The notes beneath the pieces are model-generated. The model was not told the origin of the DNA. It made no database searches and saw nothing but the letters and a program-made list of their open reading frames with translations. Positions 27,063 to 54,100 of a DNA stretch of 64,000 nucleotides are shown one piece after another. Location of the stretch: NCBI GenBank assembly GCA_964553025.1, contig CAZKJF010000018.1:1641-65640 (forward strand). Direction: 5' to 3'. Each line of letters opens with the position of its first letter. Position 1 is the stretch's first letter. The position numbers were made by a program, and so were the translations under genes. This DNA is from an uncultured Candidatus Saccharibacteria bacterium. GTDB lineage: Bacteria > Patescibacteriota > Minisyncoccia > 2-02-FULL-40-12 > GWA2-44-9.

Positions 27063-27791
27063 CTATTGGCTGATTTTGACTTGGATAAGGCAGCGGGTTT
27101 TGAGCCAATCGCGGGTGTTTGAATCGCGTGTGGAGACAAGATGATCTTGGACGGCCTGATTGAAGCGAGTGCAGACTTCAATCTTCCGATCGGAGCCGTC
27201 CGGCGTTTGAACATGTTCGGCCCGCTCGATCGCGCGATCCACTTCATCACGGAAGTCTTCGTTCAATCGCTGGATCATCTGGACGCGTTTTTGCGCCGAC
27301 GCCGGCAAAGGAGGGCGCGACGCCGAAGCGGTTACCGTTAGCACGGTCATCGTGGGAGCTGCGGTTCGGCTCAGCGTCGGCACAGACGTTGTTGCCGCCG
27401 CACGAAGCGCTTCCAATTCACGCAAACGCCGCTGGGCCAAGTCTTCATGGAGTTTTATTTTTTGTTCATCGCTCAAGGTCAAATCTAAACGCACTTGCTC
27501 ACTGACTCGTTTGAGCGGATAGAGGACATTATCAGTCGAGACGTCGGCATTATCAGCCAATGCCGCCAAACCGCCGGTACTGATAACAACCACAAACAAC
27601 GCAATGAACGCATAGCGCCAATAGCGGGCATGAGCCATCATTCGCGCAGTCGAATTTCCATTCATGGTTCGGACTGACTTCAAAAATGACTCGCGCGCCG
27701 AATCGAGGAATTCTTTTTCGGGCTGAAGGGCGTGGTGAACGCGACTCTTCAAGCGCCAGTGCCGAACGATGTCCTTAAAAGCCTGAATCAT
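27063..27791 (-). CDS. putative membrane-anchored anti-sigma factor
   Basis: Overlaps the end of the ECF sigma gene by 17 nt. Has a cytoplasmic N-terminus, one TM helix (YAFIALFVVVISTGGLAALA) and an extracytoplasmic coiled region. Confidence 0.55.
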   Translation of the reverse strand: MIQAFKDIVRHWRLKSRVHHALQPEKEFLDSARESFLKSVRTMNGNSTARMMAHARYWRYAFIALFVVVISTGGLAALADNADVSTDNVLYPLKRVSEQVRLDLTLSDEQKIKLHEDLAQRRLRELEALRAAATTSVPTLSRTAAPTMTVLTVTASASRPPLPASAQKRVQMIQRLNEDFRDEVDRAIERAEHVQTPDGSDRKIEVCTRFNQAVQDHLVSTRDSNTRDWLKTRCLIQVKISQ

Positions 27792-28320
27792 AAATTTTAG
27801 ATATTTTTTTCTTTAAGCGATGGATCATAACGCGCAAATTAGCTTCGGATTTTCCGGTCATAACCGCCAAATCCGCATATGAAACATCTGCGATGAAATA
27901 TGAATGGAATAACTCCCGCTCCTCTTCGGGAAGCTGTTCGGCTATTGCCAACACGCGCTGCATCTCGGCATTGGTCTGGACTTGTTCATTGGGGTCAACG
28001 ACATCAAAGCCGGTTTCTTGCATGGCTTCCAAAGACTGCACGGGTTTCTTTTGTCGAAAAGAATCAATCAGCAGATTGCGAGCGATCTGCCAAAACCAGG
28101 AACTGAAATTCCCGACTTCAGCGTTAAACTGGCCGATGTTTTGAAGCATCTTCGCGAATACCTCTTGGACAAGATCTTGGGCGATCTCTTTCTGGTTTGT
28201 TCGAGAAAGAAAGTAGCGGTAAAAGGAAGTTGCGAATCGGTCAAAGATGGCTGCTCCCGCCTTCTCGTCGCCTTTTTGAAGGCGTTTTGCCAAGGCATTT
28301 ATAGTTGCTGATTCAGACAT
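27775..28320 (-). CDS. ECF-type RNA polymerase sigma-70 family factor
   Basis: Region 2 (FDRFATSFYRYFLSR...EIAQDLVQEVFAKMLQNIGQFN...FSSWFWQIARNLLID) and region 4 (YADLAVMTGKSEANLRVMIHRLKKKI) of sigma-70. Confidence 0.85.
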   Translation of the reverse strand: MSESATINALAKRLQKGDEKAGAAIFDRFATSFYRYFLSRTNQKEIAQDLVQEVFAKMLQNIGQFNAEVGNFSSWFWQIARNLLIDSFRQKKPVQSLEAMQETGFDVVDPNEQVQTNAEMQRVLAIAEQLPEEERELFHSYFIADVSYADLAVMTGKSEANLRVMIHRLKKKISKIYDSGF

Positions 28321-28457: not shown

Positions 28458-29120
28458 ATGTTTAAAACAAAAGTTCTGCTTGTCAGTGCGGCAGCTCTTG
28501 CTCTTATGCCTCTTGCAACGTTCGCGCAAGGGATTGACGCTGCGGCTCATGTCCATGTCGGCGGCCGTTTCGGCTATTTTCGCCATGGTATTGCCCGCGG
28601 CATTCATAGCTTGAAAAATGCCGTTGTCGGCACAGTGAGCGCCGTGAACGGTAACGGTTCTTTCACCGTTACGAAAAAGGACGGCTCCGCGGTTACCGTT
28701 ACAACCGATGCGTCCACGAAAGTAAACGACCATGGCACGACAGCCAGCGCCAGCGCGATTACTCTGAATGATAAAGTCGTTGCCGGCGGCACGTGGAATG
28801 ATGCCAAGACGAGTTTGGCTGCCTTGCGGGTCCGCATTGTAGACAACATCGTCAGTCCGGTCGCTGATTTCTGGAAAAATCTATTTGCCGCTCATGCGGT
28901 CGTCGGTACCATTACCGCCATCAATGGCAATGTGATCACAATCGTCAATAAGGACAATGCGACTTTTACCAGCGATATTTCGAGCGCTAAACTCGTCAAG
29001 AAGAACGGCCTCGATAATGCCTCAATCGCCGACTTTAAGGTAAACGATAAAGTCGAAGTCCTCGGTTCGGTTAGCGGCAGTGTTGTTACTGCCCAGGTTG
29101 CCCACGATCTGACGAACTAA
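28458..29120 (+). CDS. secreted repeat protein (DUF5666-like beta-rich domains), divergent partner of the ECF sigma operon
   Basis: Signal peptide MFKTKVLLVSAAALALMPLATFAQG and tandem ~90-aa repeats (VVGTVSAVNGNGSFTVTKKDGSAVTVT... / VVGTITAINGNVITIVNKDNATFTS...). Confidence 0.6.
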   Translation: MFKTKVLLVSAAALALMPLATFAQGIDAAAHVHVGGRFGYFRHGIARGIHSLKNAVVGTVSAVNGNGSFTVTKKDGSAVTVTTDASTKVNDHGTTASASAITLNDKVVAGGTWNDAKTSLAALRVRIVDNIVSPVADFWKNLFAAHAVVGTITAINGNVITIVNKDNATFTSDISSAKLVKKNGLDNASIADFKVNDKVEVLGSVSGSVVTAQVAHDLTN

Positions 29121-37493: not shown

Positions 37494-38759
37494 CTAGATG
37501 CCGTGTTCCTGGAGCCAGCGAAGCTTCACGAGATATCCTTTGGTTTCAATCGCTAATCCGCCTTTTTTGGAAGTCAGAGCGTTGATCCAATCTTGGATGC
37601 CGCTAATAATTGCGGCGGCCAAAGATTTATGGGCGCGCGTCGGCGAACCGTTATACGAAGCGGCGAGATATTCTTCCAAACGAGGATCTTTCAAAACGCT
37701 TTGGCCGTTGGCGGTAATCAGCGAGGTCAGATTCGTGTCGTACAGCAAAATTGCCGCTTTCATTGAATTTAACTGATCTTTAGCGCCTTCGGTGAAATCC
37801 TTAATTAAATTTGCTTTGGGATATTGTTTAACGATTTGTTTGTATGTTTGGGGCGTAAATTGAACCCAGCCGCAGGCGCTGGAAGAATTGCACGTATTGG
37901 CAAAGGCCAGCGATTGATTGGCGCCGATAATGACGTTGATCCGGTCAACCGTGCTTTGCGGATCAATCATAAATTCGGTCAGGTCGGTCTGCTCCAAATA
38001 CGGAATATGTTCGAAAAATTCCGCGTGCGGCTGCCAGACCGCGGCAACCGTGGAGCCGCTCACTGCCGCCGACGGGACGTCGGCGGCAGTGAGCTCCGCA
38101 AACGCTTGTACTACGACCGAATGCAAATACTGCTTGCCGGCCGAAATCAAATCGGGCGTATGAATATCGGGGCTGTAGGGCGAATAAAAGTAATAATCAA
38201 TATCCAAGCTCGACGTATCCCGATCGGGATAGACGTTTGCAATGATGATTTTGTTGTCCGGTTTCTCAACGCGGTAAGCGGTATTCCAACTGTTCCAGCG
38301 AATGCCGTTCGGCCGCTCTAAAATCGATATATTCCAACCGTCCGGCGCAATCAGATCAGCGCCATGTTTGACGATCGTAATGATTGAGATTTCTCCGGTC
38401 TTGCTATCGAGCGCGGCCAGCGCAATTTCTTTTTCCGGCTCTTTGAAGGTCCGGCTGGTAACCGTGGTTTGTCCCGTCGCCGGGTCTTGGCTGATCCGAT
38501 CTTCAGCGTATGAAATATCCTGCGTCCCGACTTTTAATTTCACATCCGCCAAAAGCTGATGAGCCGCCGCGATTTTGTCTTCAATGCTCCATGAAACCGG
38601 CGCCGGCGTCGTGATCACCGTCGAAATGACGCTCAATTGCCGAGGCGGAATCTTGCCGATGAAGAAAAAAACGGCCGCGCCGAGCCCAAGCACGCCCAAC
38701 AGAAGAACGGAAAGCCGATTCCGTCCCGGCGATGATGGTAAAAAATTCAAATCGGTCAT
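37494..38759 (-). CDS. hypothetical secreted/membrane-anchored protein (421 aa)
   Basis: N-terminal TM anchor. Co-transcribed with the upstream lytic transglycosylase (4-nt overlap). Confidence 0.5.
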   Translation of the reverse strand: MTDLNFLPSSPGRNRLSVLLLGVLGLGAAVFFFIGKIPPRQLSVISTVITTPAPVSWSIEDKIAAAHQLLADVKLKVGTQDISYAEDRISQDPATGQTTVTSRTFKEPEKEIALAALDSKTGEISIITIVKHGADLIAPDGWNISILERPNGIRWNSWNTAYRVEKPDNKIIIANVYPDRDTSSLDIDYYFYSPYSPDIHTPDLISAGKQYLHSVVVQAFAELTAADVPSAAVSGSTVAAVWQPHAEFFEHIPYLEQTDLTEFMIDPQSTVDRINVIIGANQSLAFANTCNSSSACGWVQFTPQTYKQIVKQYPKANLIKDFTEGAKDQLNSMKAAILLYDTNLTSLITANGQSVLKDPRLEEYLAASYNGSPTRAHKSLAAAIISGIQDWINALTSKKGGLAIETKGYLVKLRWLQEHGI

Positions 38760-40069
38760 AAGCTTTTCTCAATCTCGGCCGCAGTGCGCTGGACGGAATT
38801 CGCGTAGGAGTTGCAAGCCGCGGTCGAGCATTTTGAGTTGCCGCTGTAATATGCTTTTGACGCCGCGATTTCAGCAGCCGCCGTTTTGCCGGTTGCACCG
38901 CCATTAGCAAGCTTGATAGCCGCAGCCGTAAAGGCATCTTCGATATTCCAAGGATTGGCAGGGTGGCCGACGACAGCTGTTACCCGATCGACGTACGCGA
39001 TCCAGGTCGAAGGAATGAACTGTGCCGGCCCCATTGCGCCGCCCCAGCCGTATTGCTTGCCGTTAATGAATTGCGGGCAGGAGACCGCCGTATTGTTCGG
39101 ATCCAATCCAAGCTGGCTGGTGATCGTCAGGAAGGGCTGGTGATCGCGCGGGTGCATGATCGCCTGCCAATGTTTAGAGGGCGGGTCTTCCGGCCGGTTG
39201 CATTTGCCGACGTTTTTACCGAGTCCGGATTCGATTTCCAATTCAGCCAGTAAAAACGCCGGCCGAATACCCGCTGAAATCGCCGCGAGATTTCCGTATT
39301 TGATCGCATCGTCCACCGACACGCCATTTTGAGTCAAATACGTAATTTCGCTCTGCAGCCGCGTAATGTCCGTTTTAGATTGGGTCACCAGCTGCTGGAA
39401 CTTCGATTCCTGGCCTTTGGTATCCTTCAAAAGCTTATCTTTTTGAGCCTTGGCCTGGTTTAAACTGTCTTTTTCAAGCTGTTCAAGATTCTGCTGCTGG
39501 CGAAGATCGTCAAGCTGATCTTCAAGTTCGTTTTCTTTGTCTTCCAAGTCCGCGTGGACGGTTTTAATGTTGTCGATCGTGGCTTTAAGGTCGTCCTGGG
39601 TCGTCTCGACGCTATTTAGATCGTTAAAAAAATCGGACAATGTATCATGTTTGAGTAGAATGGTCGTTAAATTTTCTTGATCGTTCTTATAGACCAGGAG
39701 CAAGTATTGCGCCAAGGCCTGCCGGTCTTTTTCAATGCGATTCTCGGCATCAGTAATCTGGCTTTGAGTATCGGCGATCTGGAGATTTGTTTTGCTGATA
39801 GAAATATTCAAACTCTGAATCTCAAGCGAAATCTGGCTGATCTGGGCGTTCAAGGCATTCACTTGGCCTTGCAAGGTCAGGGCTTGGGAATGAATAACGT
39901 CGATTTGCGATTGATATTGATCAATCTGTTTTTGAAGTTCTTCGATCTGCTGGTTCTTGGCCGCGATGTCATCCTGAGTGGCCGCCGAAGCGTTGAAGAC
40001 ATGAAAAACCCAGGCGCACAAAGGCAAAACTAGGGCCAACGTCCAGAGATGATGCATTCGGAACTTCAT
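38756..40069 (-). CDS. secreted coiled-coil protein with C-terminal MltB-like lytic transglycosylase domain
   Basis: Signal peptide, ~230 aa of heptad-rich Q/L/E coiled coil, then a C-terminal ...KQYGWGGAMGPAQFIPSTW... block resembling the GAMGQ.QFMPS motif of MltB-family lytic transglycosylases. Confidence 0.6.
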   Translation of the reverse strand: MKFRMHHLWTLALVLPLCAWVFHVFNASAATQDDIAAKNQQIEELQKQIDQYQSQIDVIHSQALTLQGQVNALNAQISQISLEIQSLNISISKTNLQIADTQSQITDAENRIEKDRQALAQYLLLVYKNDQENLTTILLKHDTLSDFFNDLNSVETTQDDLKATIDNIKTVHADLEDKENELEDQLDDLRQQQNLEQLEKDSLNQAKAQKDKLLKDTKGQESKFQQLVTQSKTDITRLQSEITYLTQNGVSVDDAIKYGNLAAISAGIRPAFLLAELEIESGLGKNVGKCNRPEDPPSKHWQAIMHPRDHQPFLTITSQLGLDPNNTAVSCPQFINGKQYGWGGAMGPAQFIPSTWIAYVDRVTAVVGHPANPWNIEDAFTAAAIKLANGGATGKTAAAEIAASKAYYSGNSKCSTAACNSYANSVQRTAAEIEKSL

Positions 40070-40145
40070 CGCAATAAGTATATCAAAAAAGTGGACAACC
40101 TGCTATGGATATACGCGTAAATGTTTTATACTGTTAATAACTCAC

Positions 40146-42299
40146 GTGAAAAAGTCTGCATTCCTCTCGATTCTGATATGCGGTTTCATCAGTTCGGTTT
40201 TGATATTCCGAAGCGTTCTCGCCGCCGGCAACACTCCGAATCCTCCGCCCGTCCCCATTGCGGCTGATTTGAGCAACGTCACCTTCACCAGCGACGTGAA
40301 CCAGGACGTTCGGAATTGGCCGGCAAACATCAATCTTTCGGTGAGCGTCACCCAGGACAGCGTCAATTTCAGCTACGACAAGCTGGATCAATTCGCGCCC
40401 GTGGGCAATGACAATTCGGTCGGCAACGGCTGGATCTTCTACTACAACGACGGCTGGTACGGCACCACCACCAATCAATTCCGAGCCAATCACGGCAACG
40501 ACAACAAAAGCATTTTCAATGAGATTCTCTGCGGGGGCATTGCCGGCACGCCGACCTTCGGCGGCAATTTCGTTCCCGTCCAAGGCCAGCAATACGGCTT
40601 CATGGTGTCTGGGCAAGCGCGGGCCGGCGCGGCGCCCGCCCCCGACCACGGCAAACTGCGCACTCCCCTGGTCAAGGCCGCCTGGAATTCTTCGATTACC
40701 AGCGGTGATTGCGGACCCGGCTCGGGAGGCGGCGGAACCGGAGGCACTGGCGGCGGCGCCAATGCCGGGGGTGATATCGGCGGCGGGGTGAGTTTGCCGC
40801 CCATAGAGAGCGGCGGTTCAGAAGCTTCCGACGCTACCGTTGGTTTTAACGGCCAAGTCGTATTTAATTCCCAGAACGGCACTTGGATGGTCGTTAGCGA
40901 AAACGCGGGTAAAGAAATTTACGCCCGTATTTTAGACAACAATGGCAACCCTCTCGGCGACATGATCACCGTGGCCCCCTCCGGCTATTGGCCCCGAGTC
41001 TCCTATTCGCCGGACTCGAACAAATTCTTCGTCACTTGGACCACGAGCGTCGCCAAAGACGACGAGATCATCTACGGCCAATTTATAAATCCCGATGGGT
41101 CATTCTCCGGGGCCAAAATTCAGATCGATCGGGGCACGTTTACCCTCGGCACTACTTCCAACAACCCTCCCATTCGCTACGATACCAAAAACAAAAAATT
41201 CGTGATGGTTTACGAGGATCGGGGCAGCCGAATCATCGAAGTTCGATTGGTTTCGGTCTCCATCACCGGCCAAGTCGATCCGCCAGTTGTCGTGACAACA
41301 CCGGCCGACGGTACGTTTAACGGCGCACCGGGCGTCGCGGTCAATCCGGACAAGAACGAATATTGCGTCGTCTATCAGCACGTGCTGGACGGCACCGGCG
41401 TTGAAAACACCAGCGAGGTAACGGTCAAAGCGATCAATGCGGCCACGCGCAGCGTCGGTCCCGCTTCCACGGTTACCAACAACATGTTCTTTCTCTACGG
41501 GATCGACTACAGCACCGTAGACCATCAATATTTTGCCCTCTGGTCAGACTATGCAATCAAAGAATTAATGGGCTCTTTCCTTTCGTCTTGCGCCGCGGAT
41601 CCGAACCAAGAACCCTTTGTTATTTCTGAAAATCCACACAACGGCGTTCTCGTATATAATTCTCAATCCAATACGTTTGGCATGATTACCTTGGATCGCG
41701 ATAATGCGCTTAACCATGTTTATATTATCGACGGCTCGGGAGCAGTCATTGTCAGCCAAGACCTTTTCGGCGGCGGAAAGAACGGCAACTTTACTCCCTC
41801 TATCGGCGCCAATACCATTAACGGCACCTATGCCGCCATCGCGGCTGAGGATTATGCAACCACTAAATTCATTCCTAACGTCGGCTGGCCCGACGTCACC
41901 ACCGGCCGCCGGGCCGGCGGTGCGTTTGCCGGATCAGTCACGCCGCCGTTGCGGACGGAGGGCCTGCCGACGGATCTCGGAGCCATGATTGAATGGATAT
42001 TCTCCTGGTCGCTGCGGATCGTCGGAATCGTGATCTTCCTGCGGTTCTTCTATGCCGGATTCATCTGGTTCACGGCCCGAGGCAATGCGGCTCGAACCGG
42101 CGAGGCTAAAGCCATGATGATCAATGCCTTGTATGGCGTCGTCATCCTGTTTGCCGCGTATATCATTCTGTACAGCATCAATCCCGATTTGGTCGGAAGT
42201 ACGGTGAATTTGCCGGGATTTGGGAATATACAGCCAAATCCTTCTGCTTCTCCTTCTGTTTCAACATCGCCTTCGCCGACTTTGACGCCGGCGCCGTAG
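40146..42299 (+). CDS. large secreted repeat (beta-propeller-like) protein ending in a VirB2/TrbC-pilin-like two-helix membrane module and PT tail
   Basis: Signal peptide, a Gly-rich segment GPGSGGGGTGGTGGGANAGGDIGGG, and ~50-aa repeats (..VAVNPDKNEYCVVYQ.. / ..YSPDSNKFFVTWT..). Ends with two TM helices, IVGIVIFLRFFYAGFIWF and INALYGVVILFAAYIILY, separated by a short loop. Confidence 0.55.
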   Translation: MKKSAFLSILICGFISSVLIFRSVLAAGNTPNPPPVPIAADLSNVTFTSDVNQDVRNWPANINLSVSVTQDSVNFSYDKLDQFAPVGNDNSVGNGWIFYYNDGWYGTTTNQFRANHGNDNKSIFNEILCGGIAGTPTFGGNFVPVQGQQYGFMVSGQARAGAAPAPDHGKLRTPLVKAAWNSSITSGDCGPGSGGGGTGGTGGGANAGGDIGGGVSLPPIESGGSEASDATVGFNGQVVFNSQNGTWMVVSENAGKEIYARILDNNGNPLGDMITVAPSGYWPRVSYSPDSNKFFVTWTTSVAKDDEIIYGQFINPDGSFSGAKIQIDRGTFTLGTTSNNPPIRYDTKNKKFVMVYEDRGSRIIEVRLVSVSITGQVDPPVVVTTPADGTFNGAPGVAVNPDKNEYCVVYQHVLDGTGVENTSEVTVKAINAATRSVGPASTVTNNMFFLYGIDYSTVDHQYFALWSDYAIKELMGSFLSSCAADPNQEPFVISENPHNGVLVYNSQSNTFGMITLDRDNALNHVYIIDGSGAVIVSQDLFGGGKNGNFTPSIGANTINGTYAAIAAEDYATTKFIPNVGWPDVTTGRRAGGAFAGSVTPPLRTEGLPTDLGAMIEWIFSWSLRIVGIVIFLRFFYAGFIWFTARGNAARTGEAKAMMINALYGVVILFAAYIILYSINPDLVGSTVNLPGFGNIQPNPSASPSVSTSPSPTLTPAP

Positions 42300-43630: not shown

Positions 43631-44080
43631 CTAGCGCGCGGGGTTCGGAGACGGCAGCATCGGCCGGATTTGAATCTGCTGGGCCGTTACGGTATTGTCG
43701 CTGTTCGTGGTACCCATAACCGAGACGGAATCGCCGACTTTCAAGTCCGACGTCGAGCCGGCTGCTGTTTTAGAGATGTTCGTAGAATTCGAGAGAATAA
43801 CAACGCGGCTCGAACCGTCCGCCAATTTTATCGTCATCTGCGAGCCGGAAATATCGAGAATCTCGCCGAATGTGCCGCCGCCGAACTGAACCGTCCGGCC
43901 GCCGACCATTGCCGTGCCGTTTTGATTGGCGCCGGTCGCCTGGAAACGGAATTGCTGGTTGCCGTTGCCCAAACGCGCAAAGGGCGACTTTGACTGGGCG
44001 TACTTATACCCGCCGAAGAATGCGCCTCCGGCAATCACGACTGCGACCGCGATACCGCCGACAAGGAATTTTTTGTTCAT
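43631..44080 (-). CDS. secreted beta-rich protein (DUF5666-like), last gene of MacAB-like operon
   Basis: Signal/TM anchor plus ...GSQMTIKLADGSSRVVILSNSTNISK...LKVGDSVSVMGTTNSDNTVTAQQIQI. Confidence 0.5.
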   Translation of the reverse strand: MNKKFLVGGIAVAVVIAGGAFFGGYKYAQSKSPFARLGNGNQQFRFQATGANQNGTAMVGGRTVQFGGGTFGEILDISGSQMTIKLADGSSRVVILSNSTNISKTAAGSTSDLKVGDSVSVMGTTNSDNTVTAQQIQIRPMLPSPNPAR

Positions 44081-44106: not shown

Positions 44107-45327
44107 TTATTCGTACCGCAGGGCCTCAATCGGATTCAGTTTGGCCGCGCGGCGCGCGGGATAATATCCGAACACGATCCCGATGAGCGCTGCCACGCCG
44201 AATGCCAGCGCTACCGAATACAATGTGACGGCAGTCTGCAGGGCAAAGAAATGTGCCGCTAAAATCGCGATAATCCAGCCCAAGGCCACGCCGATCAAGC
44301 CGCCGGCGACCGTAAGCATCACTGATTCGGCCAGGAATTGGGCACTGATATCGCTCGCTTTGGCGCCGATAGCCTTGCGAAGTCCGATTTCCCGGGTCCG
44401 TTCGGTTACGCTCGTCAGCATCATGTTCATGATCCCGATGCCGCCGACCAAGAGCGAAATGCCCGCGATCGCGGCCAGAAGGATTGTAAACGTACCCGTT
44501 ACGCTGGACGCCGCAGCGATAATATCCGATTGATTGATGACGCTGAAATCGGCATTCGCCTCATCGGCGATGCGATGGCGGTCAAGCAGCACGGCCGTGA
44601 TGTCGGCCTGGACGGCCGACATCACGTTTTGACTTGCAGCCTGGACGCTGATGTTCGACAGGTACTTGTCCCCCGACAAATACCGTTCGGCGGTCGTGAT
44701 AGGAATATAGATCGCGTCATCGGCGTTGCTTAAACCCGAGCCGCCCTTGGCTTGGGTTACGCCGATAACAGTAAAAATAACTTTGTTTATTTTAATTTTC
44801 TGGCCGATCGGATCGACTCCTTCGCCGAAAAGATCGTCCCGCGTCGTCGGACCCAGCACCGCCACTTTGGAATAACTGCTCAAAGCGCCCTGATCGAAGA
44901 ACGATCCGTCGCCGATTTCAACATTGTGAACGTTTGGATATGCTTCAGTCGCGCCGGTCACGGAGGTATTGGTATTCTGGCCGCCGTACACGACTTGGTA
45001 GCGGCGGGAAATTTCCGGCGAGACGTTAGTGATATTCGAAACCTGGGCCGCAATCGCGTCTGCGTCTTCCTCGCTTAACGTTTCGGCGCTGCCGCGGCCG
45101 GTGCTGACTTGAAACCCAAAACCGCGCTGGGCGCCGGGCTGGACGATGAGCAAATTGGAACCGATGGACTCGATGCTCGACTGAATCGAATCCTGCGCGC
45201 CCTGACCGATCGAAACGAGGCCGATCACCGAAGCGATGCCGATAACGATGCCAAGTATGGTCAAACTCGACCGAGCCTTGTTGACGGTCAGGGCGCTGTA
45301 CGTTTCCAGCATGAGATCTTTAGGCTT
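44107..45327 (-). CDS. ABC transporter permease, MacB/FtsX family (start trimmed to MKPKDL)
   Basis: MacB periplasmic domain and C-terminal FtsX 4-TM domain. With the start at MKPKDL, it overlaps the ATPase gene by 8 nt. Confidence 0.8.
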   Translation of the reverse strand, partial: KPKDLMLETYSALTVNKARSSLTILGIVIGIASVIGLVSIGQGAQDSIQSSIESIGSNLLIVQPGAQRGFGFQVSTGRGSAETLSEEDADAIAAQVSNITNVSPEISRRYQVVYGGQNTNTSVTGATEAYPNVHNVEIGDGSFFDQGALSSYSKVAVLGPTTRDDLFGEGVDPIGQKIKINKVIFTVIGVTQAKGGSGLSNADDAIYIPITTAERYLSGDKYLSNISVQAASQNVMSAVQADITAVLLDRHRIADEANADFSVINQSDIIAAASSVTGTFTILLAAIAGISLLVGGIGIMNMMLTSVTERTREIGLRKAIGAKASDISAQFLAESVMLTVAGGLIGVALGWIIAILAAHFFALQTAVTLYSVALAFGVAALIGIVFGYYPARRAAKLNPIEALRYE

Positions 45328-46033
45328 CATGGCGAGTGGTGATGCGGCGTTTTTGGCGGTTTTTTTCATCGCGGATAATCGCGCCATCCTTAATTTGAAT
45401 AATCCGGTCCGCGTGTTCGGCGATATACTGCTCGTGAGTGATCAGCACGATCGTGCGGCCGGCTTCGTTGAGACGCTGGAACGTGCTCAACACGATCTCG
45501 CCCGTCCTGGAATCCAAGTTTCCGGTCGGTTCGTCAGCCAAGATAATGGCCGGATCATTGACCAGCGCCCGGGCGATAGCGACGCGCTGCATTTGGCCAC
45601 CCGAAATTTGGTTTGATAAATACTGAAAGCGTGATTCGTCCATACCGGCTGCATGAAGCGCTTTTGCGGCGCGCTTAGTCCGCTCAGCTTCCGGCACTTC
45701 CGAGTACAGCAGCGGCAGCGCGACATTCCGGAGCACCGTCGCGCGCCGCAGAAGATTGAATGATTGGAACACAAAGCCGATTTTAGTCTTTCGCACCTCG
45801 GCGAGCTCGTCGTCCGAAAGCGTCGAAATATCGCGACCGGCAAGAACGTAGCGTCCTGTCGAGGGCACGTCGAGCGCGCCCAAAATGTTCATAAGCGTTG
45901 ATTTGCCCGAGCCGGACGGGCCCATGATGGCAACGAATTCACCCTCATCAATTTTAAATGAAACGTCCTTCAGAACGTGGGTTTTTTCGCCGCTGTTGAC
46001 GTACGTTTTGCTGATGTGGGCGCATTCGATCAT
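45320..46033 (-). CDS. ABC transporter ATP-binding protein (MacB/LolD-like)
   Basis: Walker [11 protein letters not shown], signature [14 protein letters not shown] and Walker [13 protein letters not shown]. Confidence 0.9.
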
Positions 46034-46039
46034 AGATAT

Positions 46040-47812
46040 TTATCGGACAAACGTAGCGTTGCCGCCGCCAAGCGATTGGACACGAACAGCGCCGCCGCCG
46101 GTTGTGCCGCCAAAGGCGCGCGTGTTGGTTTGAGCGGTGCTAGAGCTAGAACTCGGCATGATGGTGCGAGTGACAATTTCGTCGCCTTCAGCCAGGCCGC
46201 TTTTAATTTCTGTTTCCGTATCGCCCTGAAGGCCGATTTCGACCTGCTTCATCTCCGGCTGGGCCGGCAAGGCTGCGGAGCCGATGGTCGTCGTGCCGGC
46301 CGCACCCACATCCACGCCAGTAATTGTCTGGACAAACCATTGGCCGTTCGTCTGGCGTACTGCGGTCGTCGGCACCATCAAAACATCGGTGCTCACGCCG
46401 CTTAAGATCGTAACTGTCGTACTCATCCCGGGTTTGACTTTGTCGTTTTCAACATCGAGCGCGACTTGGGCGTTATACGAGACGACGCCCTGGCTGACAG
46501 TCCCAAGCGAGTCGACCGAGATGACCGTCCCGGTGAGAGTAACATCGGGCAATGCATCGAACGTAAGGGTCGCTTTCTGGCCTTCGTGGATATTCGCAAT
46601 ATCAGTTTCGTTCAAAGAAATGTCGGCGATGCTCTTTTGGGTATAGATTGTCGCCACGGTCGTGCCGCTGGAAACGGAATCGCCGCGCTGCACGGGCACA
46701 TCGGCCAGTACGCCGTCAAACGGAGCGCGAACGTACAGATCGGCCAGCGCATCTTTGGCATCCTGCAGCGCGGCCTCTTTCTGGGCTACAGAATTCTGCT
46801 GGTTAGCCAGATCAAGCGGATCGCCGAGCTGGGAGCTTTGGATGGATTGCTTGATACTGCGGATCGAATCGCGCGAACTGGTTACGCTCGACAACCGGCT
46901 GTTAATCGTGCTTGCATAGCCGGCAAGATCGCCCTGATAATTTGTGACCTGCGCAGGTATGGTATTGATGACTTGGCCGTTCGCGCCGACCGTGCGATTC
47001 TTGCTTTGCGCGTCGCTAACCGCATCCAGCAAATTCTGCTCGCTCTTGATGGCCTGGGCTTCAAGCTTCAAAACTGAAATCGTGGTATCCAGCATCGTCG
47101 CAATGGTATCTTCATCGGTTTCGTCCAGGCGGAGCGTGCGATAGGTGGCTAAAGCCGGATCGTACGCCGCGCGTGCGGCGTTATAATCGGTCTGGGCCTG
47201 CGTTGCCAGTGCCTGAATGGCGTCATGTTCATCGGTGTCAGTGCCGTAGTTCGCGTACTGACAGAGATTGGGCGTACAGTCGCCTTTGAGCGTGTTGGCA
47301 TAGAGCACATCGTCGGTGCCCTGCATCACATCCACTAAGCTCAAGAAGGTGCTCGAAATCTGGCTGACCGCGTCGGTATAGCTCTTTGTCAGATTATCGT
47401 CTCGATCTTGCTGGCTTGAAGATTGATCGAGTTGGAATTTCTGCAGGGCAACTTTGGCGTTATCGAGCGCAAGTTGGGCGTCACGGACGTTTTTCTGGGC
47501 GTCGGTGGTATCGAGCTGGGCAATCAGTTGGCCGGACTTGACCGTCTGGCCTTTTTTGGCCGCAACGTACGTTATATCGCCGGACGCTTTGGGTTTAATA
47601 TCAACTTTGTTCTGCGAAGAAATTTGGCCGGCTTCGGTAATGCCTGCCGTCACCGTTCCTTTTTGGACAGTTCCAATCACATACTGCGTCTCGGCTTTTG
47701 AGGTGCTATGGAAGAACCCGTAATACACGGCCACCGCAATAATCAAAACGGCAAACAGCGACACGATCTTATGCCTTCGAACATACGAACCGAACGAAGA
47801 AAAATAATTCAT
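46040..47812 (-). CDS. periplasmic adaptor (HlyD/MacA-like membrane fusion protein) with long coiled-coil
   Basis: N-terminal TM, biotin-lipoyl-like beta strands, long coiled-coil hairpin and C-terminal beta-barrel segments. 590 aa. Confidence 0.8.
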   Translation of the reverse strand: MNYFSSFGSYVRRHKIVSLFAVLIIAVAVYYGFFHSTSKAETQYVIGTVQKGTVTAGITEAGQISSQNKVDIKPKASGDITYVAAKKGQTVKSGQLIAQLDTTDAQKNVRDAQLALDNAKVALQKFQLDQSSSQQDRDDNLTKSYTDAVSQISSTFLSLVDVMQGTDDVLYANTLKGDCTPNLCQYANYGTDTDEHDAIQALATQAQTDYNAARAAYDPALATYRTLRLDETDEDTIATMLDTTISVLKLEAQAIKSEQNLLDAVSDAQSKNRTVGANGQVINTIPAQVTNYQGDLAGYASTINSRLSSVTSSRDSIRSIKQSIQSSQLGDPLDLANQQNSVAQKEAALQDAKDALADLYVRAPFDGVLADVPVQRGDSVSSGTTVATIYTQKSIADISLNETDIANIHEGQKATLTFDALPDVTLTGTVISVDSLGTVSQGVVSYNAQVALDVENDKVKPGMSTTVTILSGVSTDVLMVPTTAVRQTNGQWFVQTITGVDVGAAGTTTIGSAALPAQPEMKQVEIGLQGDTETEIKSGLAEGDEIVTRTIMPSSSSSTAQTNTRAFGGTTGGGAVRVQSLGGGNATFVR

Positions 47813-47909: not shown

Positions 47910-48566
47910 CTATTGGACTGTCGGGAGAGACTGGCAGTCGCGGCCGTTATAATTCACGTCCGAGAGGGACACATAACCGGTAGCGCTGCCCTGGAGCGAG
48001 CCGTCCGAGAGGTCGACTTTAGCCCACGACGAAGCGGAAGTACCGGTTACTCCGGTAACTTTGGTGTAATCGCCGAAATGCATCGTCGCCACGACCGAAG
48101 CCGCAGCTGATTTGCTTGATCGGACCGGAATATCGGCCTGGGCCATGGTGTAGCAGGTAAACGGCGGCAAAGTCGGCATTTCCGGTACGTTATCGCAATC
48201 ACCCTGGAGCTGGAAATCGGCATCGGGCGGAATCCAGCGCAATCGGAACGGTCCGACATTCGGTGCTTGAGCGGAAGCCGGATCAAAGCCGACCCAGCCG
48301 TTGGCAGTCACGCCACCGGCGATAATCTGGTCATCCGAAGTGGCTTGGCCGAACACCGGCGCCTGGGTGCTGGGTCGGCTGTAAACGGTCGTCGTCTCGC
48401 GCAGTACAATATCGCACGAAGACGCGAGTCCCGTCGGAGAAACGCTGGCGCTTGCCGACGGAGTCGGACTGGTGCCGGCGTGTTCCGATCGCGGATTCCA
48501 GTACCATAAATAGAGGCCGGCCAGCCCAACCAATATGATAATGATGATCGAGAAAAGTGTTTTCAT
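47910..48566 (-). CDS. hypothetical secreted protein (218 aa)
   Basis: N-terminal TM/signal and a PS-rich linker. Confidence 0.45.
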   Translation of the reverse strand: MKTLFSIIIIILVGLAGLYLWYWNPRSEHAGTSPTPSASASVSPTGLASSCDIVLRETTTVYSRPSTQAPVFGQATSDDQIIAGGVTANGWVGFDPASAQAPNVGPFRLRWIPPDADFQLQGDCDNVPEMPTLPPFTCYTMAQADIPVRSSKSAAASVVATMHFGDYTKVTGVTGTSASSWAKVDLSDGSLQGSATGYVSLSDVNYNGRDCQSLPTVQ

Positions 48567-48583: not shown

Positions 48584-49930
48584 TTAATATCCGAACTTTT
48601 CAAAGTGGATCCGGGCCGGCGCCACTCCTAAGCCGCTGACGATGTGCCGTATGGCTTCTGTCATGGCCGCCGGGCCGCAAAAATATATATCCCGCTCCCG
48701 ATAATCAGAGACATACTCCTTTATGTGGCCGCCGTCAATACGGCCGGGCTCATGGCTCGATTGATGCTGTTCGAGGAAGAAATAGAGCTTGAACGGATGC
48801 CGGCGCTGGAGCGCGAGCAATTCCTCTTTAAACACGATATCGTGTTCGGTGCGATTGGCGTACAGTAATATCACATCGGCGCCGGCGGCCGCCAACGGTT
48901 CGATCATAGCCCGGATGGGCGTGATGCCGATGCCGCCGGCGATCAGCAGGAATTTGTCAGTCTGGGCGATCTCCCGCGTAAATACTCCCAGCGGCCCGTC
49001 AATGACGACTCTCGTTTCCGCCTCCAGCTTATTGATTCGGGACGTAAAATCGCCCGCACCCCGAATCGTAAACCGAATCTCGCTGCCGCCGGGCGGCAGC
49101 GAGAACGAGAATGGATGGGCGAACAGCATTCCTTTCTGCAAAAAGAATAAATTGGCGAACTGGCCGGGCCGATACCGAAAAGCCGCCAGGTTCCTGCCGG
49201 TTATATAAATAGAGTGGACGTCGGGCGCTTCGCGGACGATCCGATCGATGCGGAATTTAAACCGGTTCAGATTCCAGAGCGGTCTTATGAACCGGAATAG
49301 CACTAGAAGGCCGAACGCACCCCAGGTAATGGATTGCCATGCAAACTTGGCGGCAGGATTGCCGGCGAAATCGCCGAAGTTTGTTTGATGCTCGAGCACC
49401 AGGATAATCGCGGCGTAGACGGAGAGATGGATAAGGTACCACGTTTCGTAGCGATAGCGCCGGTGCAGAAACATCCGCACCGAAGCGATAATAATCGTGG
49501 CGAAAATCACCCAGGCAATAAACGCTTCCCAAACTCCGTCCCAGACGGTAACCAGCGTCCAAGCCTGGCCCCAAAATCCCGTCTGGCTCCAAACTGCGTG
49601 ACCCAGAATGATCAGGAGCGGATGCAGTATCAAGAAAGCCGACAGCGTGAACCCGTTATACTGATGCCAGCGATTCAGTTTATCGTGGCCGAAAGCCTGC
49701 TCGATAAAGGGAATGCGACCGATTAGGAATATCTGCAGGAGCACGCCGGCCTCCGCCAGGAGGCCGGCGAGGCGGCCCAGCGCGACCACACGGGCGCCGG
49801 GCCCGCCCCGGTTCATCAAAGCCCCCCACCCCGGCGGTCCCCAGAAAAAAAAAAGACAGCCCCAGGCCGCCGCGCCGATTGCGGAGATAATTAACCGTTT
49901 TAAGGCAAGTAATCGAGTACATTGAGCCAT
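48584..49930 (-). CDS. NOX/FRE-family flavocytochrome: ferric-reductase-like 6-TM domain fused to FAD/NAD(P)H-binding oxidoreductase domain
   Basis: TM region with His pairs, an FAD motif (RPGQFANL..HPFSFS) and an NAD(P)H motif (LLIAGGIGITP). 448 aa. Confidence 0.7.
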   Translation of the reverse strand: MAQCTRLLALKRLIISAIGAAAWGCLFFFWGPPGWGALMNRGGPGARVVALGRLAGLLAEAGVLLQIFLIGRIPFIEQAFGHDKLNRWHQYNGFTLSAFLILHPLLIILGHAVWSQTGFWGQAWTLVTVWDGVWEAFIAWVIFATIIIASVRMFLHRRYRYETWYLIHLSVYAAIILVLEHQTNFGDFAGNPAAKFAWQSITWGAFGLLVLFRFIRPLWNLNRFKFRIDRIVREAPDVHSIYITGRNLAAFRYRPGQFANLFFLQKGMLFAHPFSFSLPPGGSEIRFTIRGAGDFTSRINKLEAETRVVIDGPLGVFTREIAQTDKFLLIAGGIGITPIRAMIEPLAAAGADVILLYANRTEHDIVFKEELLALQRRHPFKLYFFLEQHQSSHEPGRIDGGHIKEYVSDYRERDIYFCGPAAMTEAIRHIVSGLGVAPARIHFEKFGY

Positions 49931-50541
49931 CCGTTCAATTCATCCTTGGTCTGCACGTAGCCGGCAATCGTGATCGCCGTCCCGACGTGAATTCCCAGAT
50001 GCAAATGCTTCCGTTCGCCGTCTGTTTCCGAACTATAGCCGGTTCCCAGAACCGCGATCTGCCGGCCGTGGATCAATTGGTCGCCGACCGCCGCAAATAC
50101 GCTTGTCAGCCGGACATGGCCGTAAATCACCGTGACGTCCTGGCCGTCTAAAACGCAGCGCTGGACCATCACGCCGCCATAGCCGCTTGCTGTTCGTTTT
50201 TGAACCAGTGGCCCGTCACACAAAGCATATACGGCCACATCTACGTTTTGTTCCGCTTCCGTGGTCTCGAAATCAACGCCGGTATGATAGCCGGTGAAGC
50301 GCTCGGGCTGAACCGGCGAGGAGCCTGGCTTGACGAATATGCCCAGCGGCTTTTTGGTTACCCGGTCGCGGGCATGAGAGATCGGCTCGGCAATCGCTGC
50401 CGCCGGAGCCGACGCGCTTACCGACGGACTCGGCGAGTTCGTCGCACTCGGCATCTCAACTTTCTCTCGGAAGACCCAGAACGCGCTAAACCCGCCCAGA
50501 ACAATAATAAAGCAGGCGATAACTATCCGGCGGCGATTCAT
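49900..50541 (-). CDS. M23 family metallopeptidase (LytM-like)
   Basis: HTGVDF...D...HLHLGIHVG matches the HxxxD / HxH motifs of M23. Confidence 0.75.
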   Translation of the reverse strand: MNRRRIVIACFIIVLGGFSAFWVFREKVEMPSATNSPSPSVSASAPAAAIAEPISHARDRVTKKPLGIFVKPGSSPVQPERFTGYHTGVDFETTEAEQNVDVAVYALCDGPLVQKRTASGYGGVMVQRCVLDGQDVTVIYGHVRLTSVFAAVGDQLIHGRQIAVLGTGYSSETDGERKHLHLGIHVGTAITIAGYVQTKDELNGWLNVLDYLP

Positions 50542-51185: not shown

Positions 51186-54100
51186 TTACTGGCGTTTGTA
51201 TGGGGGGACTTGCGAGAGCGAAGTGTAGGCGTTCGAAGAGAGCGTGTACCACGCGAATTCATTGTTGTTGACGCAGAACACTTTTTTGAAGAATTCCGGG
51301 TCTTGAGCAACGGCCTGATCGCCGGCCATATTGACCCAATGCAGGATTGCAGTATCTTCGCCCGTCACCTCCACCGCGTAGACCTTCGGATCGTTGGTCT
51401 CACAATTTTGGAAGAGGGTCGTGGTCGGAAACGCATCGCGGGCTTCGGGCGTGATAGTCTTCACATTGCTCCAGCCGCCGAGGTGGCCGTAGAAGTTGAA
51501 GATCACGGGATTCAGGAACAGCCGCTTATAGCCGTAAGTATTGATTATATAAATGTCGGGGTCATTGGAGCCAGCGGCGCTGATCATTTGACCTTCGTTA
51601 AGACCGTACTTGCCAAGGTTAGCCGAATCCCCAGTCGTGATACCCAAGACAGTCGGACTGGGCGTAGGTGTCGGCGAAACCACAGGCGTTATTGCGCCGC
51701 AGCCGCCACAACCCCCGCCTCCACCACTGGATAAAGGTTGCGGAGTCGGCGTGGGCGTAGGTGTCGGCGAAGTTGACGCTTCAATCTCATTGCCATACGT
51801 TTCCGGCGAGCCGTGCGATACCGGCCGGAAATAATACGAGGTTGCCGCGGCCAACCCGCTGATCGTCACCGAATGGCTCACAACCAATTGAGAATCTTCA
51901 CCGGTCGTATTCGCATACCCGTAGCATTCGAAAGATGCGGAAGCGACAGCTGTCGGATTGCAAGTGTTCGCGCCGACCGGCTCATGGGAAACCGTATCCC
52001 AGACGACGCGGCTTGTCGCCGGATGAGTTGTAGTCCACGTGATCGTAATGCTGTCCGAGGTGGCAGAAGCGGTTTGTTGGGCAAGCACATGGAGCGTGGC
52101 GGGAATGACGGTTTCAAATTGAGCGGAAGCTACGCCGATATTTCCGGCCGCGTCAGTAGCTTTGAGGGTAAAGATATGGGAACCGCTGGCCGTGAGAACA
52201 GGTTCGAACGGCGAAGCGCATACCGCAAACGAAATAGAATCGATCTTGCATTCGGTCGTTGTCGGACTAGCGTCAGAAACGCTGAACGCCAGATGGGGTG
52301 CGGCGTCGGTGGGACTCGCGATGGGATCAATCGAAACTGCGGGAGCGGTAACATCTTTGTCGCGAAGCGTGATGATACAGGCGGCAGAATGGCCCGTCGA
52401 GAGGGCGCCGACGCACTCGGCTGATCTCGAGGCGGCATAATTGGAAGGTACTGGGGTCGTAATATTCACCGCATACTGTTGATTGGAAGAAATACTGACC
52501 AAGGTTCCCTCGCTGCTGCCGACGAAGGATTGCGGATTGGCAACCACTCCGTCCACGGAAATCGTTAGATCGCTTGGAACCATCGTCCCGCCGAAATTAT
52601 TTTCCACATTCACGGTTACGTTTAGGCTCGGGTCTTTCATTTTTTCCACTCCTTCGGAAACCGTGTACACGGGAATATTCACGGAACGAATGTAATCGAG
52701 AATCGTCCGCAGCATTTCCGGCGTTGCGCCGTACGCCATATCTTCGCTGGTAGATACGCCTTCTTCAATCTGATGGAAAACGAGAATCAGCCAAGTCCGG
52801 TCGGCAACGGCCTGATTGATCCAATTCTTGACCTGGTCGGGTGTAGTATCGGCATTCACCGATTGGCCGTACAGCGCGAACATGTCCACATTCTTGTCGT
52901 TGAAGCCGGGAGAAACGGTGCGGCCCGACGTGTATCCGGCGCCGGCTGAAATTTCTTCAACCGAGTGGTTGTAGCTGCCGTAGGGATATGCGATGGGCAA
53001 AACGGGAGCCAAGCCGCCGCCAAGCAGTTCCTGGCGATTGCCGGAAATTTCCAATGTTGCATCGGTACCGCCAAGCGTGGCCAAATCGGGATGCGTCTGG
53101 GTATGGCCGCCTACCTCATGCCCGTCCGCTTCCAGGCCAGCGACTTGTTCCGGCGTCATAAATATGCTGAATGCTCCGAATGCAACGTCATCCACCGTCA
53201 GCGTCCCCGCTCCGCGAAGTCCGTGAATGACTGTCACCAATTTGGCATCGGGCGGAATATAAATATTGGAAGTTGAATACTGGGTCCACTCGTCGCCCGA
53301 TGAACCAAGCGTCGCATACGGTTTCTTGTCGGAAGTCGCATTGCCGTCGCTATCGATATATTCAAGCGAGCCGCTTGCCACCGTGATTTGAACAAAAATC
53401 GCGGATTGGGTGCTGCTTTTATACCAATCGCTGTAGGAATAAAACTTGTCGGGCAAGATCGTTACGGGCGAGAAATACCAGCCCGGACTGTTGCTGTTGG
53501 TATTGCTTTGATTGGAATGAACTTGTACCGCTCGGCCGGAATGGCCGCCGGAAGAAAGATAGGAAAATGTCGCGTTGGCGCTGCCGGACGTAAGCCAATC
53601 CTTGGGCATGCTTGAGTTTTCCGGATCGACCGTCTCCAATCCGGGGTTCGCAACGCCGAAACCCGACGCGTGAGAAATGATATAAAAGGTTCCTTTGACT
53701 CCCGCCGCGTCCAAAATCGGCTGGGCAATGGTCGCATGATCGGCATAACCGTCATCGAACGTAAGCGAAACAAAGCCGTTAGCGAATGGCACCGGCGGTT
53801 TAACCTGAATTAAACTAAAGTTGTCCAGCGTCAGCGTGCCGGCTGAATAAAGAATATGGTAGACGGTCATGGATGCTGCGCCGTCGGGGACGATAAATGT
53901 TTCGGTAATTGATTTCCAGGTCGTCGTCGGAGTTGCCGGAATATTGTAGAACCCCATGTAGGACAAATGATTGCCGCCCGCGTCGAAAAATTCAGCGGTG
54001 ATAATCGTGGGGACCGACGCCACATAAGCGTCGGAGAACGTGTATTGCCGGCCGGACGTAACGGCGACAGGGTCAAAATACCATTTGGCATCTCCGCCTT

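Follow-up and report, generated by a model that had tools for sequence, protein, structure and literature searches.

Organization of the locus

Three genes for cell-envelope proteins, here named A, B and C, lie side by side in the stretch of DNA that we analyzed (64 kb of contig CAZKJF010000018.1 from an uncultured member of the Patescibacteria; hereafter the window). Together they form a conserved cell-envelope cluster of the chromosome of Paceibacteria (candidate phyla radiation), and all parts of this cluster come from known families. Genes A and B are read in the same direction from the minus strand and overlap by 4 bp (ATGA), and gene C is oriented divergently from B. The first-pass annotation, made from the letters of this DNA alone, had drawn the same three open reading frames (ORFs) in this head-to-head layout. 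It had also taken the products of both A and B to be secreted; this holds for B, which carries a Sec signal peptide, but not for A, which possesses a membrane anchor instead.

37494..38759, minus strand: gene A, 421 amino acids (aa), from the ORF list; AlphaFold2 (AF2) model with a predicted local distance difference test score (pLDDT) of 89.3
38756..40069, minus strand: gene B, 437 aa; signal peptide, coiled coil and SLT_2 (MltB-like) domain
40070..40145, no strand: divergent spacer between B and C, 76 bp
40146..42299, plus strand: gene C, 717 aa; signal peptide, N-terminal domain, propeller, hairpin and tail

Scans for promoters and terminators, which included the B-C spacer, gave counts not above those of shuffled controls. 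ORFs of 80-170 aa run antisense to, or overlap, the three genes (e.g., 40134-40649, minus strand); they are most likely non-coding by-products of a G+C content of about 52%.

Gene B: a predicted coiled-coil lytic transglycosylase

The B protein begins with a Sec-type signal peptide whose cleavage is expected after ASA and before A, continues into a coiled coil of about 220 aa and ends with a domain of the MltB type.

39980..40069, minus strand: signal peptide, aa 1-30 (...NASA/A), from sequence inspection and hydropathy
39320..39979, minus strand: coiled coil, about aa 31-250, matching models of SMC, Rad50, EnvC, tropomyosin and other coiled coils
38759..39307, minus strand: catalytic domain, aa 255-437, from a PF13406 match and invariant columns

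Two elements that the first-pass annotation had recognized in B, a coiled coil of about 230 aa and a peptidoglycan-cleaving domain with the motif GAMGPAQFIPS, were both recovered. Many coiled-coil families matched aa 30-250, and the motif falls inside the region that matches the SLT_2 family (PF13406). This match is borderline in B itself (19.4 bits, cut-off 24.3), as is a weak one to TIGR02283 (MltB_2; E = 0.0042), but the assignment is clear in the family: PF13406 is precomputed in most of 120 listed orthologues (52-97% identical), several of the listed relatives are named lytic murein transglycosylase, and the Joint Genome Institute (JGI) label reads "peptidoglycan hydrolase CwlO-like." The family is large, with more than 4,800 proteins at E ≤ 0.001 among 8,000 candidates. 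In an alignment of 30 of its sequences, E280 and S281, which stand in LE(I/V)ESGLG, are invariant throughout, and the domain further contains GAMGPAQFIPSTW. Within GGAMGPAQFIPSTW, residues G343, G344, A345, G347, A349, Q350, F351, P353, T355 and W356 are invariant, and M346, I352 and S354 are conserved in at least 90% of the sequences. Because the E280-S281 pair is invariant, GGAMGPAQFIPSTW is conserved and PF13406 is found in the orthologues, B is, on the evidence of its sequence, a secreted lytic transglycosylase of a coiled-coil/MltB type. Scans of A, B and C against NCBIfam returned nothing specific beyond coiled-coil matches, and single-sequence searches of the three proteins against the PDB yielded just coiled-coil or Gly-linker noise.

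B is near-universal in Patescibacteria (at least 545 stretches confirmed by tblastn) and is 50-70% identical between deep lineages of the phylum. It had been likened to PcsB in the first pass; the architecture agrees with this, but a genetic link to FtsEX does not. No ftsEX genes adjoin B here, where the sole gene of the window with an FtsX fold encodes a MacB-type permease with an HlyD partner, and only 4 of about 165 loci have FtsX within 10 kb of B, which makes FtsEX a weak lead as the partner of B. One of these loci (L083:7004-11308) carries an FtsX gene with the FtsX_ECD domain two genes upstream of the B orthologue, preceded by an ORF resembling a P-loop ABC ATPase that is likely ftsE. 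A model of EnvC matched B weakly (E = 0.019).

Gene A: a membrane-tethered protein with a predicted transglycosylase fold

The A protein itself matched no family of Pfam or NCBIfam. Its family comprises more than 130 proteins of Patescibacteria, many of which share contigs with B orthologues, and the AF2 model divides A into a membrane helix, a beta domain and a helical domain. Since the N-terminal hydrophobic helix has no obvious cleavage site, it appears to be an anchor and not a cleaved signal.

38658..38717, minus strand: N-terminal membrane anchor, aa 15-34, from hydropathy and a helix in the AF2 model
38184..38531, minus strand: beta-rich domain, aa 77-192, from AF2 secondary structure (pLDDT >90)
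37506..38156, minus strand: helical domain resembling SLT and goose lysozyme, aa 202-418, with invariant E256 and the motifs ACGWVQFT and AASYNG

The family alignment is strongly conserved over the C-terminal half. E256 is invariant at the end of a helix in the motif LEQTDLTEF, and further conserved motifs are ACGWVQFT (GWVQFT), NSMKAAILLYD and LEEYLAASYNG (SYNG). When the family profile was compared with the PDB, the best match was the lytic transglycosylase gp144 of phage phiKZ, at a marginal E value of 0.05; a match to PF01464 was present in 3 of 33 relatives (best 1.4e-5). Foldseek aligned 140-190 residues of the model, a length that fits its helical domain, with MltE and gp144 at a probability of 1.0. 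No specific fold match for the beta domain was found among the listed top matches. A is thus predicted from its model to be a second, membrane-tethered protein with a lytic-transglycosylase fold and with E256 as candidate catalytic residue. The first-pass annotation, which had described A simply as a secreted protein, overlooked this fold.

Gene C: a pilin-like hairpin behind a large ectodomain

NCBI lists a protein with 99% identity to the product of gene C under the name "pilin [Candidatus Paceibacterota bacterium]." The C protein is built from six segments.

40146..40226, plus strand: signal peptide, aa 1-27, from hydropathy
40227..40739, plus strand: N-terminal domain, aa 28-198 (pLDDT <50), with homologous stretches in P0339, P0002, P0378 and L124
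40740..40817, plus strand: Gly-rich low-complexity linker, aa 199-224, from the sequence, with spurious matches to antibody linkers
40818..41885, plus strand: seven-bladed beta-propeller, aa 225-580, with block-mean pLDDT mostly >90 and Foldseek matches
41976..42194, plus strand: hairpin with a borderline match to PF18895 ("T4SS_pilin"), helices aa 611-643 and 648-678, basic loop TARGNAARTGEAKA
42195..42296, plus strand: Pro/Ser/Thr-rich extracytoplasmic tail, aa 684-717, from the sequence (pLDDT <50)

Hydropathy and the helices of the AF2 model gave a signal peptide together with two hydrophobic helices separated by a short positively charged loop. Of two conserved motifs, GLPTDLG (aa 606-612) begins at 41961, just 5' of the hairpin segment, and INPDLV lies within it. 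The score against PF18895 was 22.5 bits for full-length C and 26.4 bits for the domain alone (cut-off 26.6), and this family was matched by 15 of 15 members of the hairpin subfamily (best 3.1e-11). PF04956, the VirB2/TrbC family, was not matched by C or its hairpin at E ≤ 1, a profile of the pilin domain found nothing among the PDB sequences, and hhalign gave a probability of 3.8% when the hairpin profile was compared with an alignment of four annotated VirB2/TrbC proteins (Agrobacterium-type VirB2). Hence, the likeness to VirB2 is one of architecture and of the name of the Pfam family, not of demonstrable homology. The VirB2/TrbC-pilin-like anchor proposed earlier stands as far as the hairpin, its basic loop and its family (borderline here, clear among relatives) are concerned, whereas homology to VirB2 is undetectable. 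We also considered GLPTDLG followed by a helix and a basic loop as an LPXTG-like sortase signal and rejected this, as a second conserved helix and INPDLV follow and the domain stands directly after the signal peptide or in mid-protein in relatives.

The repeat or beta-propeller part that had been noted in C proved to be a seven-bladed propeller by AF2 and Foldseek, with YncE, the Photorhabdus lectins PHL and PLL, G-beta and sialidases among its matches (E about 1e-10; TM-scores, normalized by target length, up to 0.72). A Pfam match to ESPR at aa 238-254 falls within this propeller and is spurious. A word-indexed search with C retrieved 2 proteins only, probably owing to low-complexity words, and was replaced by an exhaustive HMMER search, in which the whole protein as query yielded 9,723 representative clusters at E ≤ 1e-3. 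Relatives of the N-terminal domain are few, the central domain (about aa 225-580) also occurs in many proteins of more than 1,000 aa, and the C-terminal domain (about aa 585-700) is found in many architectures; most of the listed short matches align only with this last part.

Pilin-domain neighbors of gene B

The pilin-domain ORFs adjacent to B orthologues range from 106 to 2,080 aa. Among 72 such partners, 19 are bare pilins, 34 carry at least 200 aa before the hairpin, 27 at least 60 aa after it, and only about 10 possess the propeller of C. The hairpin itself has a median pairwise identity of 53%, which includes the extracytoplasmic motifs GLPTDLG and INPDLV. With ectodomains that are absent in some partners and reach about 2,000 aa in others and a hairpin conserved at this level, the hairpin appears as the constant element beside B and A that carries a conserved function. 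Clustering of the ectodomains by BLAST as a gauge of their hypervariability was abandoned, since single linkage merged 48 of the 72 segments, probably through linkers and shared domains; we therefore describe ectodomain variation by size range and by presence of the propeller.

Tandem copies of the pilin gene occur at several loci, two of which (L159:666-10202 and L112:4216-10628) have two such genes beside B. One protein from a tandem locus is 2,080 aa long and has its hairpin in mid-protein (aa 1344-1440), so that large extracellular parts are possible on both sides of the hairpin. Another protein of 612 aa (P0325) contains four tandem hairpins (aa 38-121, 149-236, 255-345 and 385-470), which would amount to eight membrane helices, an unusual architecture for a "pilin."

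Conservation of the gene order

The trio is flanked on one side by the genes for RNase Y, phosphoglycerate mutase and MnmA and on the other by those for phosphoglucose isomerase, a DUF5666 protein and a MacB/ABC/HlyD system. We rejected the idea of a prophage or lysis cassette because of this housekeeping context and because comparison with PHROGs revealed no phage relation, its only matches being of the coiled coil to tape-measure proteins.

Conservation of the neighborhood in relatives had been named beforehand as a test of the cluster, and the trio is indeed kept across many diverged loci. Exact-protein look-ups of four B orthologues (56-68% identical) gave the same gene order in all four: one or two genes for proteins of 247-756 aa with precomputed PF18895 stand divergently upstream of B, and A follows directly downstream. 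We then scanned GTDB species genomes with a profile of B and screened the resulting 80 loci with hidden Markov models (HMMs) for A, B and the pilin domain. B has A and a pilin gene beside it only at identities of at least about 41% to the B studied here (Yanofskybacteria-like lineages), and this is so at most such loci; one locus (L027) departs from this rule, in that B is 39% identical and a pilin gene is present, but A is absent. Elsewhere in the DNA of these genome loci (about 1.3 Mb), the pilin HMM found no matches.

In the reverse direction, a metagenome scan seeded by the pilin domain alone gave 80 loci, 47 of which have at least 1.5 kb of upstream DNA. B is divergently adjacent to the pilin gene, followed by A, in 42 of these 47. 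Clustering at 90% identity divides the full-length B proteins beside a pilin gene into 45 groups, and their pairwise identity has a median of 51%. The pilin domains of the five loci without B are less similar, and two of these loci (L139 and L149) present housekeeping contexts. A third of the five (L169:5726-13809) encodes a VirB4-like ATPase (P-loop_TraG/AAA_10, 598 aa) followed directly by pilin-domain proteins of 876 and 779 aa, whose N-terminal hairpins are about 40% identical to that of C. Large pilin-domain fusions hence occur inside clusters for type IV secretion systems (T4SS) as well, and the wider family has T4SS-linked members.

The trio is the tightest part of a longer block, and it persists where pgi or mnmA is displaced or absent (L001, L002, L120, L154 and L160-162). 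Domain scans of the sizeable ORFs of the window detected no VirB4, VirB6, VirD4, trsD or other T4SS domain, in line with the initial remark that the window is free of T4SS ATPases, and VirB4, VirB6, VirD4 and trsD were likewise absent from the related trio loci that we inspected.

Functional interpretation

Taking the observed domain identities, topology signals, conserved catalytic residues and juxtaposition of the genes as a starting point, we favor a reading in which the wall-cutting enzymes A and B assist in positioning the pilin-domain protein across the peptidoglycan or in assembling it there, a proposal that we hold to have an even chance of being correct. The operon of B and A would supply two extracytoplasmic enzymes of the lytic-transglycosylase type. 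B would be secreted, with its long coiled coil ahead of the MltB/SLT_2 domain, and A would be tethered by its single N-terminal helix and present its beta domain and its predicted SLT/MltE-like fold. The C protein would be exported via Sec and, after cleavage of the signal peptide, be held in the membrane by the VirB2-like hairpin (PF18895), with the basic loop on the cytoplasmic side and both ends outside. Given such a topology, the propeller and the N-terminal domain would be displayed extracellularly and the tail would point outward. The two transglycosylases may cut glycan strands of the cell's own wall, their activity may in this clade be coupled to the placing of a bare or decorated pilin-domain neighbor, and the propeller may bind a ligand.

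Several findings weigh against this coupling. About 60 more distantly related lineages (Azam-, Magasanik-, Doudna-, Uhr-, Jorgensen-, Harrisonbacteria and others) lack both A and a pilin gene in the 10 kb around B, which there adjoins housekeeping genes for L25, fructose-bisphosphate aldolase and DeoC; the core role of B should therefore be independent of C. The longer order pgi-PIL-B-A-(variable)-mnmA-gpmI-rny, in which PIL is the pilin gene, is often conserved too, so that adjacency is a weaker proof of shared function and may in part reflect inherited gene order. At three loci (L013, L024 and L080) B and A are kept and there is no pilin gene, at another (L015) the pilin gene and B are kept and A is absent, and C is transcribed divergently, outside the B-A operon.

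A serious rival, if on balance an unlikely one, builds on such findings and assumes no coupling at all: B and A would be a housekeeping pair of autolysins for growth or division, with the coiled coil of B acting as a regulatory element as in PcsB, CwlO and EnvC with FtsEX, and C would be an independent membrane-anchored, lectin-like adhesin in a frozen gene order. The near-universal presence of B, its housekeeping neighbors outside the clade, the co-conserved block and the separate, divergent transcription unit of C all fit, as do the CwlO-like label of B relatives and the occurrence in Patescibacteria of FtsX with FtsX_ECD, at one locus two genes upstream of B. Yet the trio is kept more tightly than its flanks, survives displacement of pgi or mnmA and recurs at 42 of the 47 loci with upstream DNA in the pilin-seeded scan; the B-adjacent hairpins form a well-conserved subfamily of their own, whereas pilin genes without B are of lower similarity, and FtsX is rare in the vicinity of B.

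A T4SS appendage reading of the cluster is possible. In the form that we consider clearly unlikely, C and its bare orthologues would be VirB2-type pilus subunits, or minor subunits that bear an adhesin, B and A would be functional equivalents of VirB1, and polymerization would be carried out by a Patescibacteria T4SS encoded elsewhere in the genome. The T4SS genes of Paceibacteria usually lie near dnaA. Published counts place VirB4 in 2,417 of 3,035 Patescibacteria assemblies (PMC12102498, PMC10633639, PMC12857230), the T4SS and VirB2-like PF18895 pilins are essential in Southlakia epibionticum, the one species tested (PMC10633639, PMC12857230), and most genomes with VirB2-like pilins have no recognized VirB1 (PMC12102498). 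The assignment of the hairpin to PF18895, borderline in C itself, accords with this background, and so do the VirB4-linked subfamily and the share of bare pilins among the B-adjacent partners. The hairpin and its juxtamembrane motifs are, moreover, strongly conserved, which would suit a polymerizing unit. On the other side stand the lack of any T4SS gene in the window and in the inspected trio loci, the lack of detectable VirB2 homology and of a PDB sequence match, and the absence of a pilin neighbor of B in most lineages. Geometry, too, is unfavorable: a helical filament of the VirB2/TraA kind would become crowded if each of its subunits bore a propeller of about 360 aa.

A bolder variant, which we hold to be decidedly improbable, takes the B-adjacent PF18895 proteins for a distinct, conserved appendage system of Yanofskybacteria-like Paceibacteria. 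The VirB2-like hairpin would polymerize, or dock into a wall-spanning assembly, with the help of a dedicated pair of transglycosylases, and would build a "decorated T4SS-type pilus" or modular display fiber with interchangeable ectodomains (none to about 2,000 aa; here a lectin-like propeller). If true, it would account for attachment to hosts or particles and would supply the "missing VirB1" of the T4SS of Patescibacteria.

An attack on the host by an epibiont, in which the propeller binds host glycans while B and A digest the host wall for nutrients, is the least likely of the explanations and a very doubtful one, because B is so strongly conserved; 50-70% identity over deep lineages and ubiquity are unusual for host-directed weapons. 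It has been proposed that lytic transglycosylases allow Patescibacteria to compromise the envelopes of their hosts (PMC11665869), fucose-binding Photorhabdus lectins and sialidases are among the best matches of the propeller, and the ectodomains are variable, as expected of parts that face a host. However, the membrane tether of A and the regulatory-type coiled coil of B both fit action on the cell's own wall, and the propeller matches are generic (9-14% identity), with no conserved sugar-binding motif shown.

The Patescibacteria, which live attached to hosts, account for a large part of bacterial diversity. In all loci that we inspected, the B-adjacent pilin-domain subfamily is located apart from virB4 and is tied instead to two genes of the transglycosylase type, one of which represents a family that Pfam and NCBIfam do not recognize; its hairpin is a constant module that bears very different extracellular domains. 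Should the coupling of A and B to their pilin-domain neighbor be real, the cluster would offer a candidate route for pilin-anchored proteins through the wall of monoderm cells and a set of variable surface proteins for tests of host recognition. Should it not be, the cluster would represent ordinary envelope housekeeping plus one annotated "pilin." In those parts of the literature on PF18895 that were accessible, we found no description of the pilin/transglycosylase trio or of large ectodomain fusions.

Other features of the window

Beyond the trio and its flanks, the window encodes glycosyltransferases, MreB, ribosomal proteins, RpoA, AlaRS, a UvrD-like helicase, Obg and a sigma factor of the extracytoplasmic function (ECF) type. 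The MacB/HlyD set, 4 kb from B, comprises a MacB-type permease (MacB_PCD and FtsX), an ABC ATPase and a 590-aa HlyD-like adaptor (44107-47812), a system of the tripartite type in a presumed monoderm. Among the related loci, a set of this kind was retrieved only at L154, where it comes after the pilin gene. More cell-wall machinery is present at 51186-54767, where a 1,193-aa protein combines two polysaccharide-deacetylase stretches with a purple-acid-phosphatase N-terminal domain, and beside it in an M23 peptidase (49900-50541) and an SH3_3 protein (47910-48566). The ECF-type sigma factor gene (27775-28320) stands next to genes for a DUF5667 protein (27063-27791) and a DUF5666 protein (28458-29120), and a second DUF5666 protein is encoded near the trio (43631-44080). 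Between 58000 and 64000, the G+C content drops from about 0.50-0.57 to 0.35-0.42; the genes of this segment encode a Polysacc_synt flippase-like protein, GT1 and GT2 glycosyltransferases and a hydrolase resembling GH5/GH39. The segment may have been acquired horizontally as a surface-glycan island, or it may mark an assembly join.

Comparison with known systems

Compared with VirB1, TraG of pIP501 and EtgA, B is housekeeping-like, phylum-wide and mostly without pilin neighbors, and no T4SS genes are found near it. Enzymes of the VirB1 type are small and consist of SLT only, whereas B joins a domain of the MltB/SLT_2 family to a coiled coil. The VirB1-type reading of B, which the first-pass annotation had suggested from its architecture, is weak, given about 60 lineages in which B has neither pilin nor T4SS neighbors and the lack of genes for such a machine nearby. 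B resembles PcsB, CwlO, EnvC and RipC in its signal peptide, long coiled coil and C-terminal wall-cleaving domain, but the match is one of architecture only, since their catalytic domains are of the CHAP, NlpC/P60 or LytM kind and that of B is a lytic transglycosylase. Relative to the family-3 lytic transglycosylases (MltB/Slt35), B adds the coiled coil. A, when set beside family-1 lytic transglycosylases (MltE, Slt70 and MltC) and phage lysins (phiKZ gp144 and phi6 P5), differs by an additional beta domain and a membrane anchor and has diverged past detection by Pfam.

For C, the closest parallels are the PF18895 pilins of Patescibacteria, which share its signal peptide, its two-helix hydrophobic hairpin with a short basic loop and its phylum. 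The tandem paralogues at some trio loci recall the PF18895 pilin array of S. epibionticum; in contrast to the pilins of the Southlakia T4SS cluster, however, C adjoins two lytic-transglycosylase genes and not virB4, and it differs from PF18895 pilins by an ectodomain of about 580 aa before the hairpin and a Pro/Ser/Thr tail behind it. With the canonical VirB2/TrbC pilins (PF04956; Agrobacterium VirB2 and RP4 TrbC), C shares the predicted topology of both ends outside and the loop inside; these pilins measure about 70-120 aa and have no large ectodomains, as against 717 aa for C. The fold of aa 225-580 resembles those of Photorhabdus PHL and PLL and of Escherichia coli YncE (TM-score 0.66-0.72, target-normalized), at 11-14% sequence identity, and in C this propeller is fused to a membrane hairpin.

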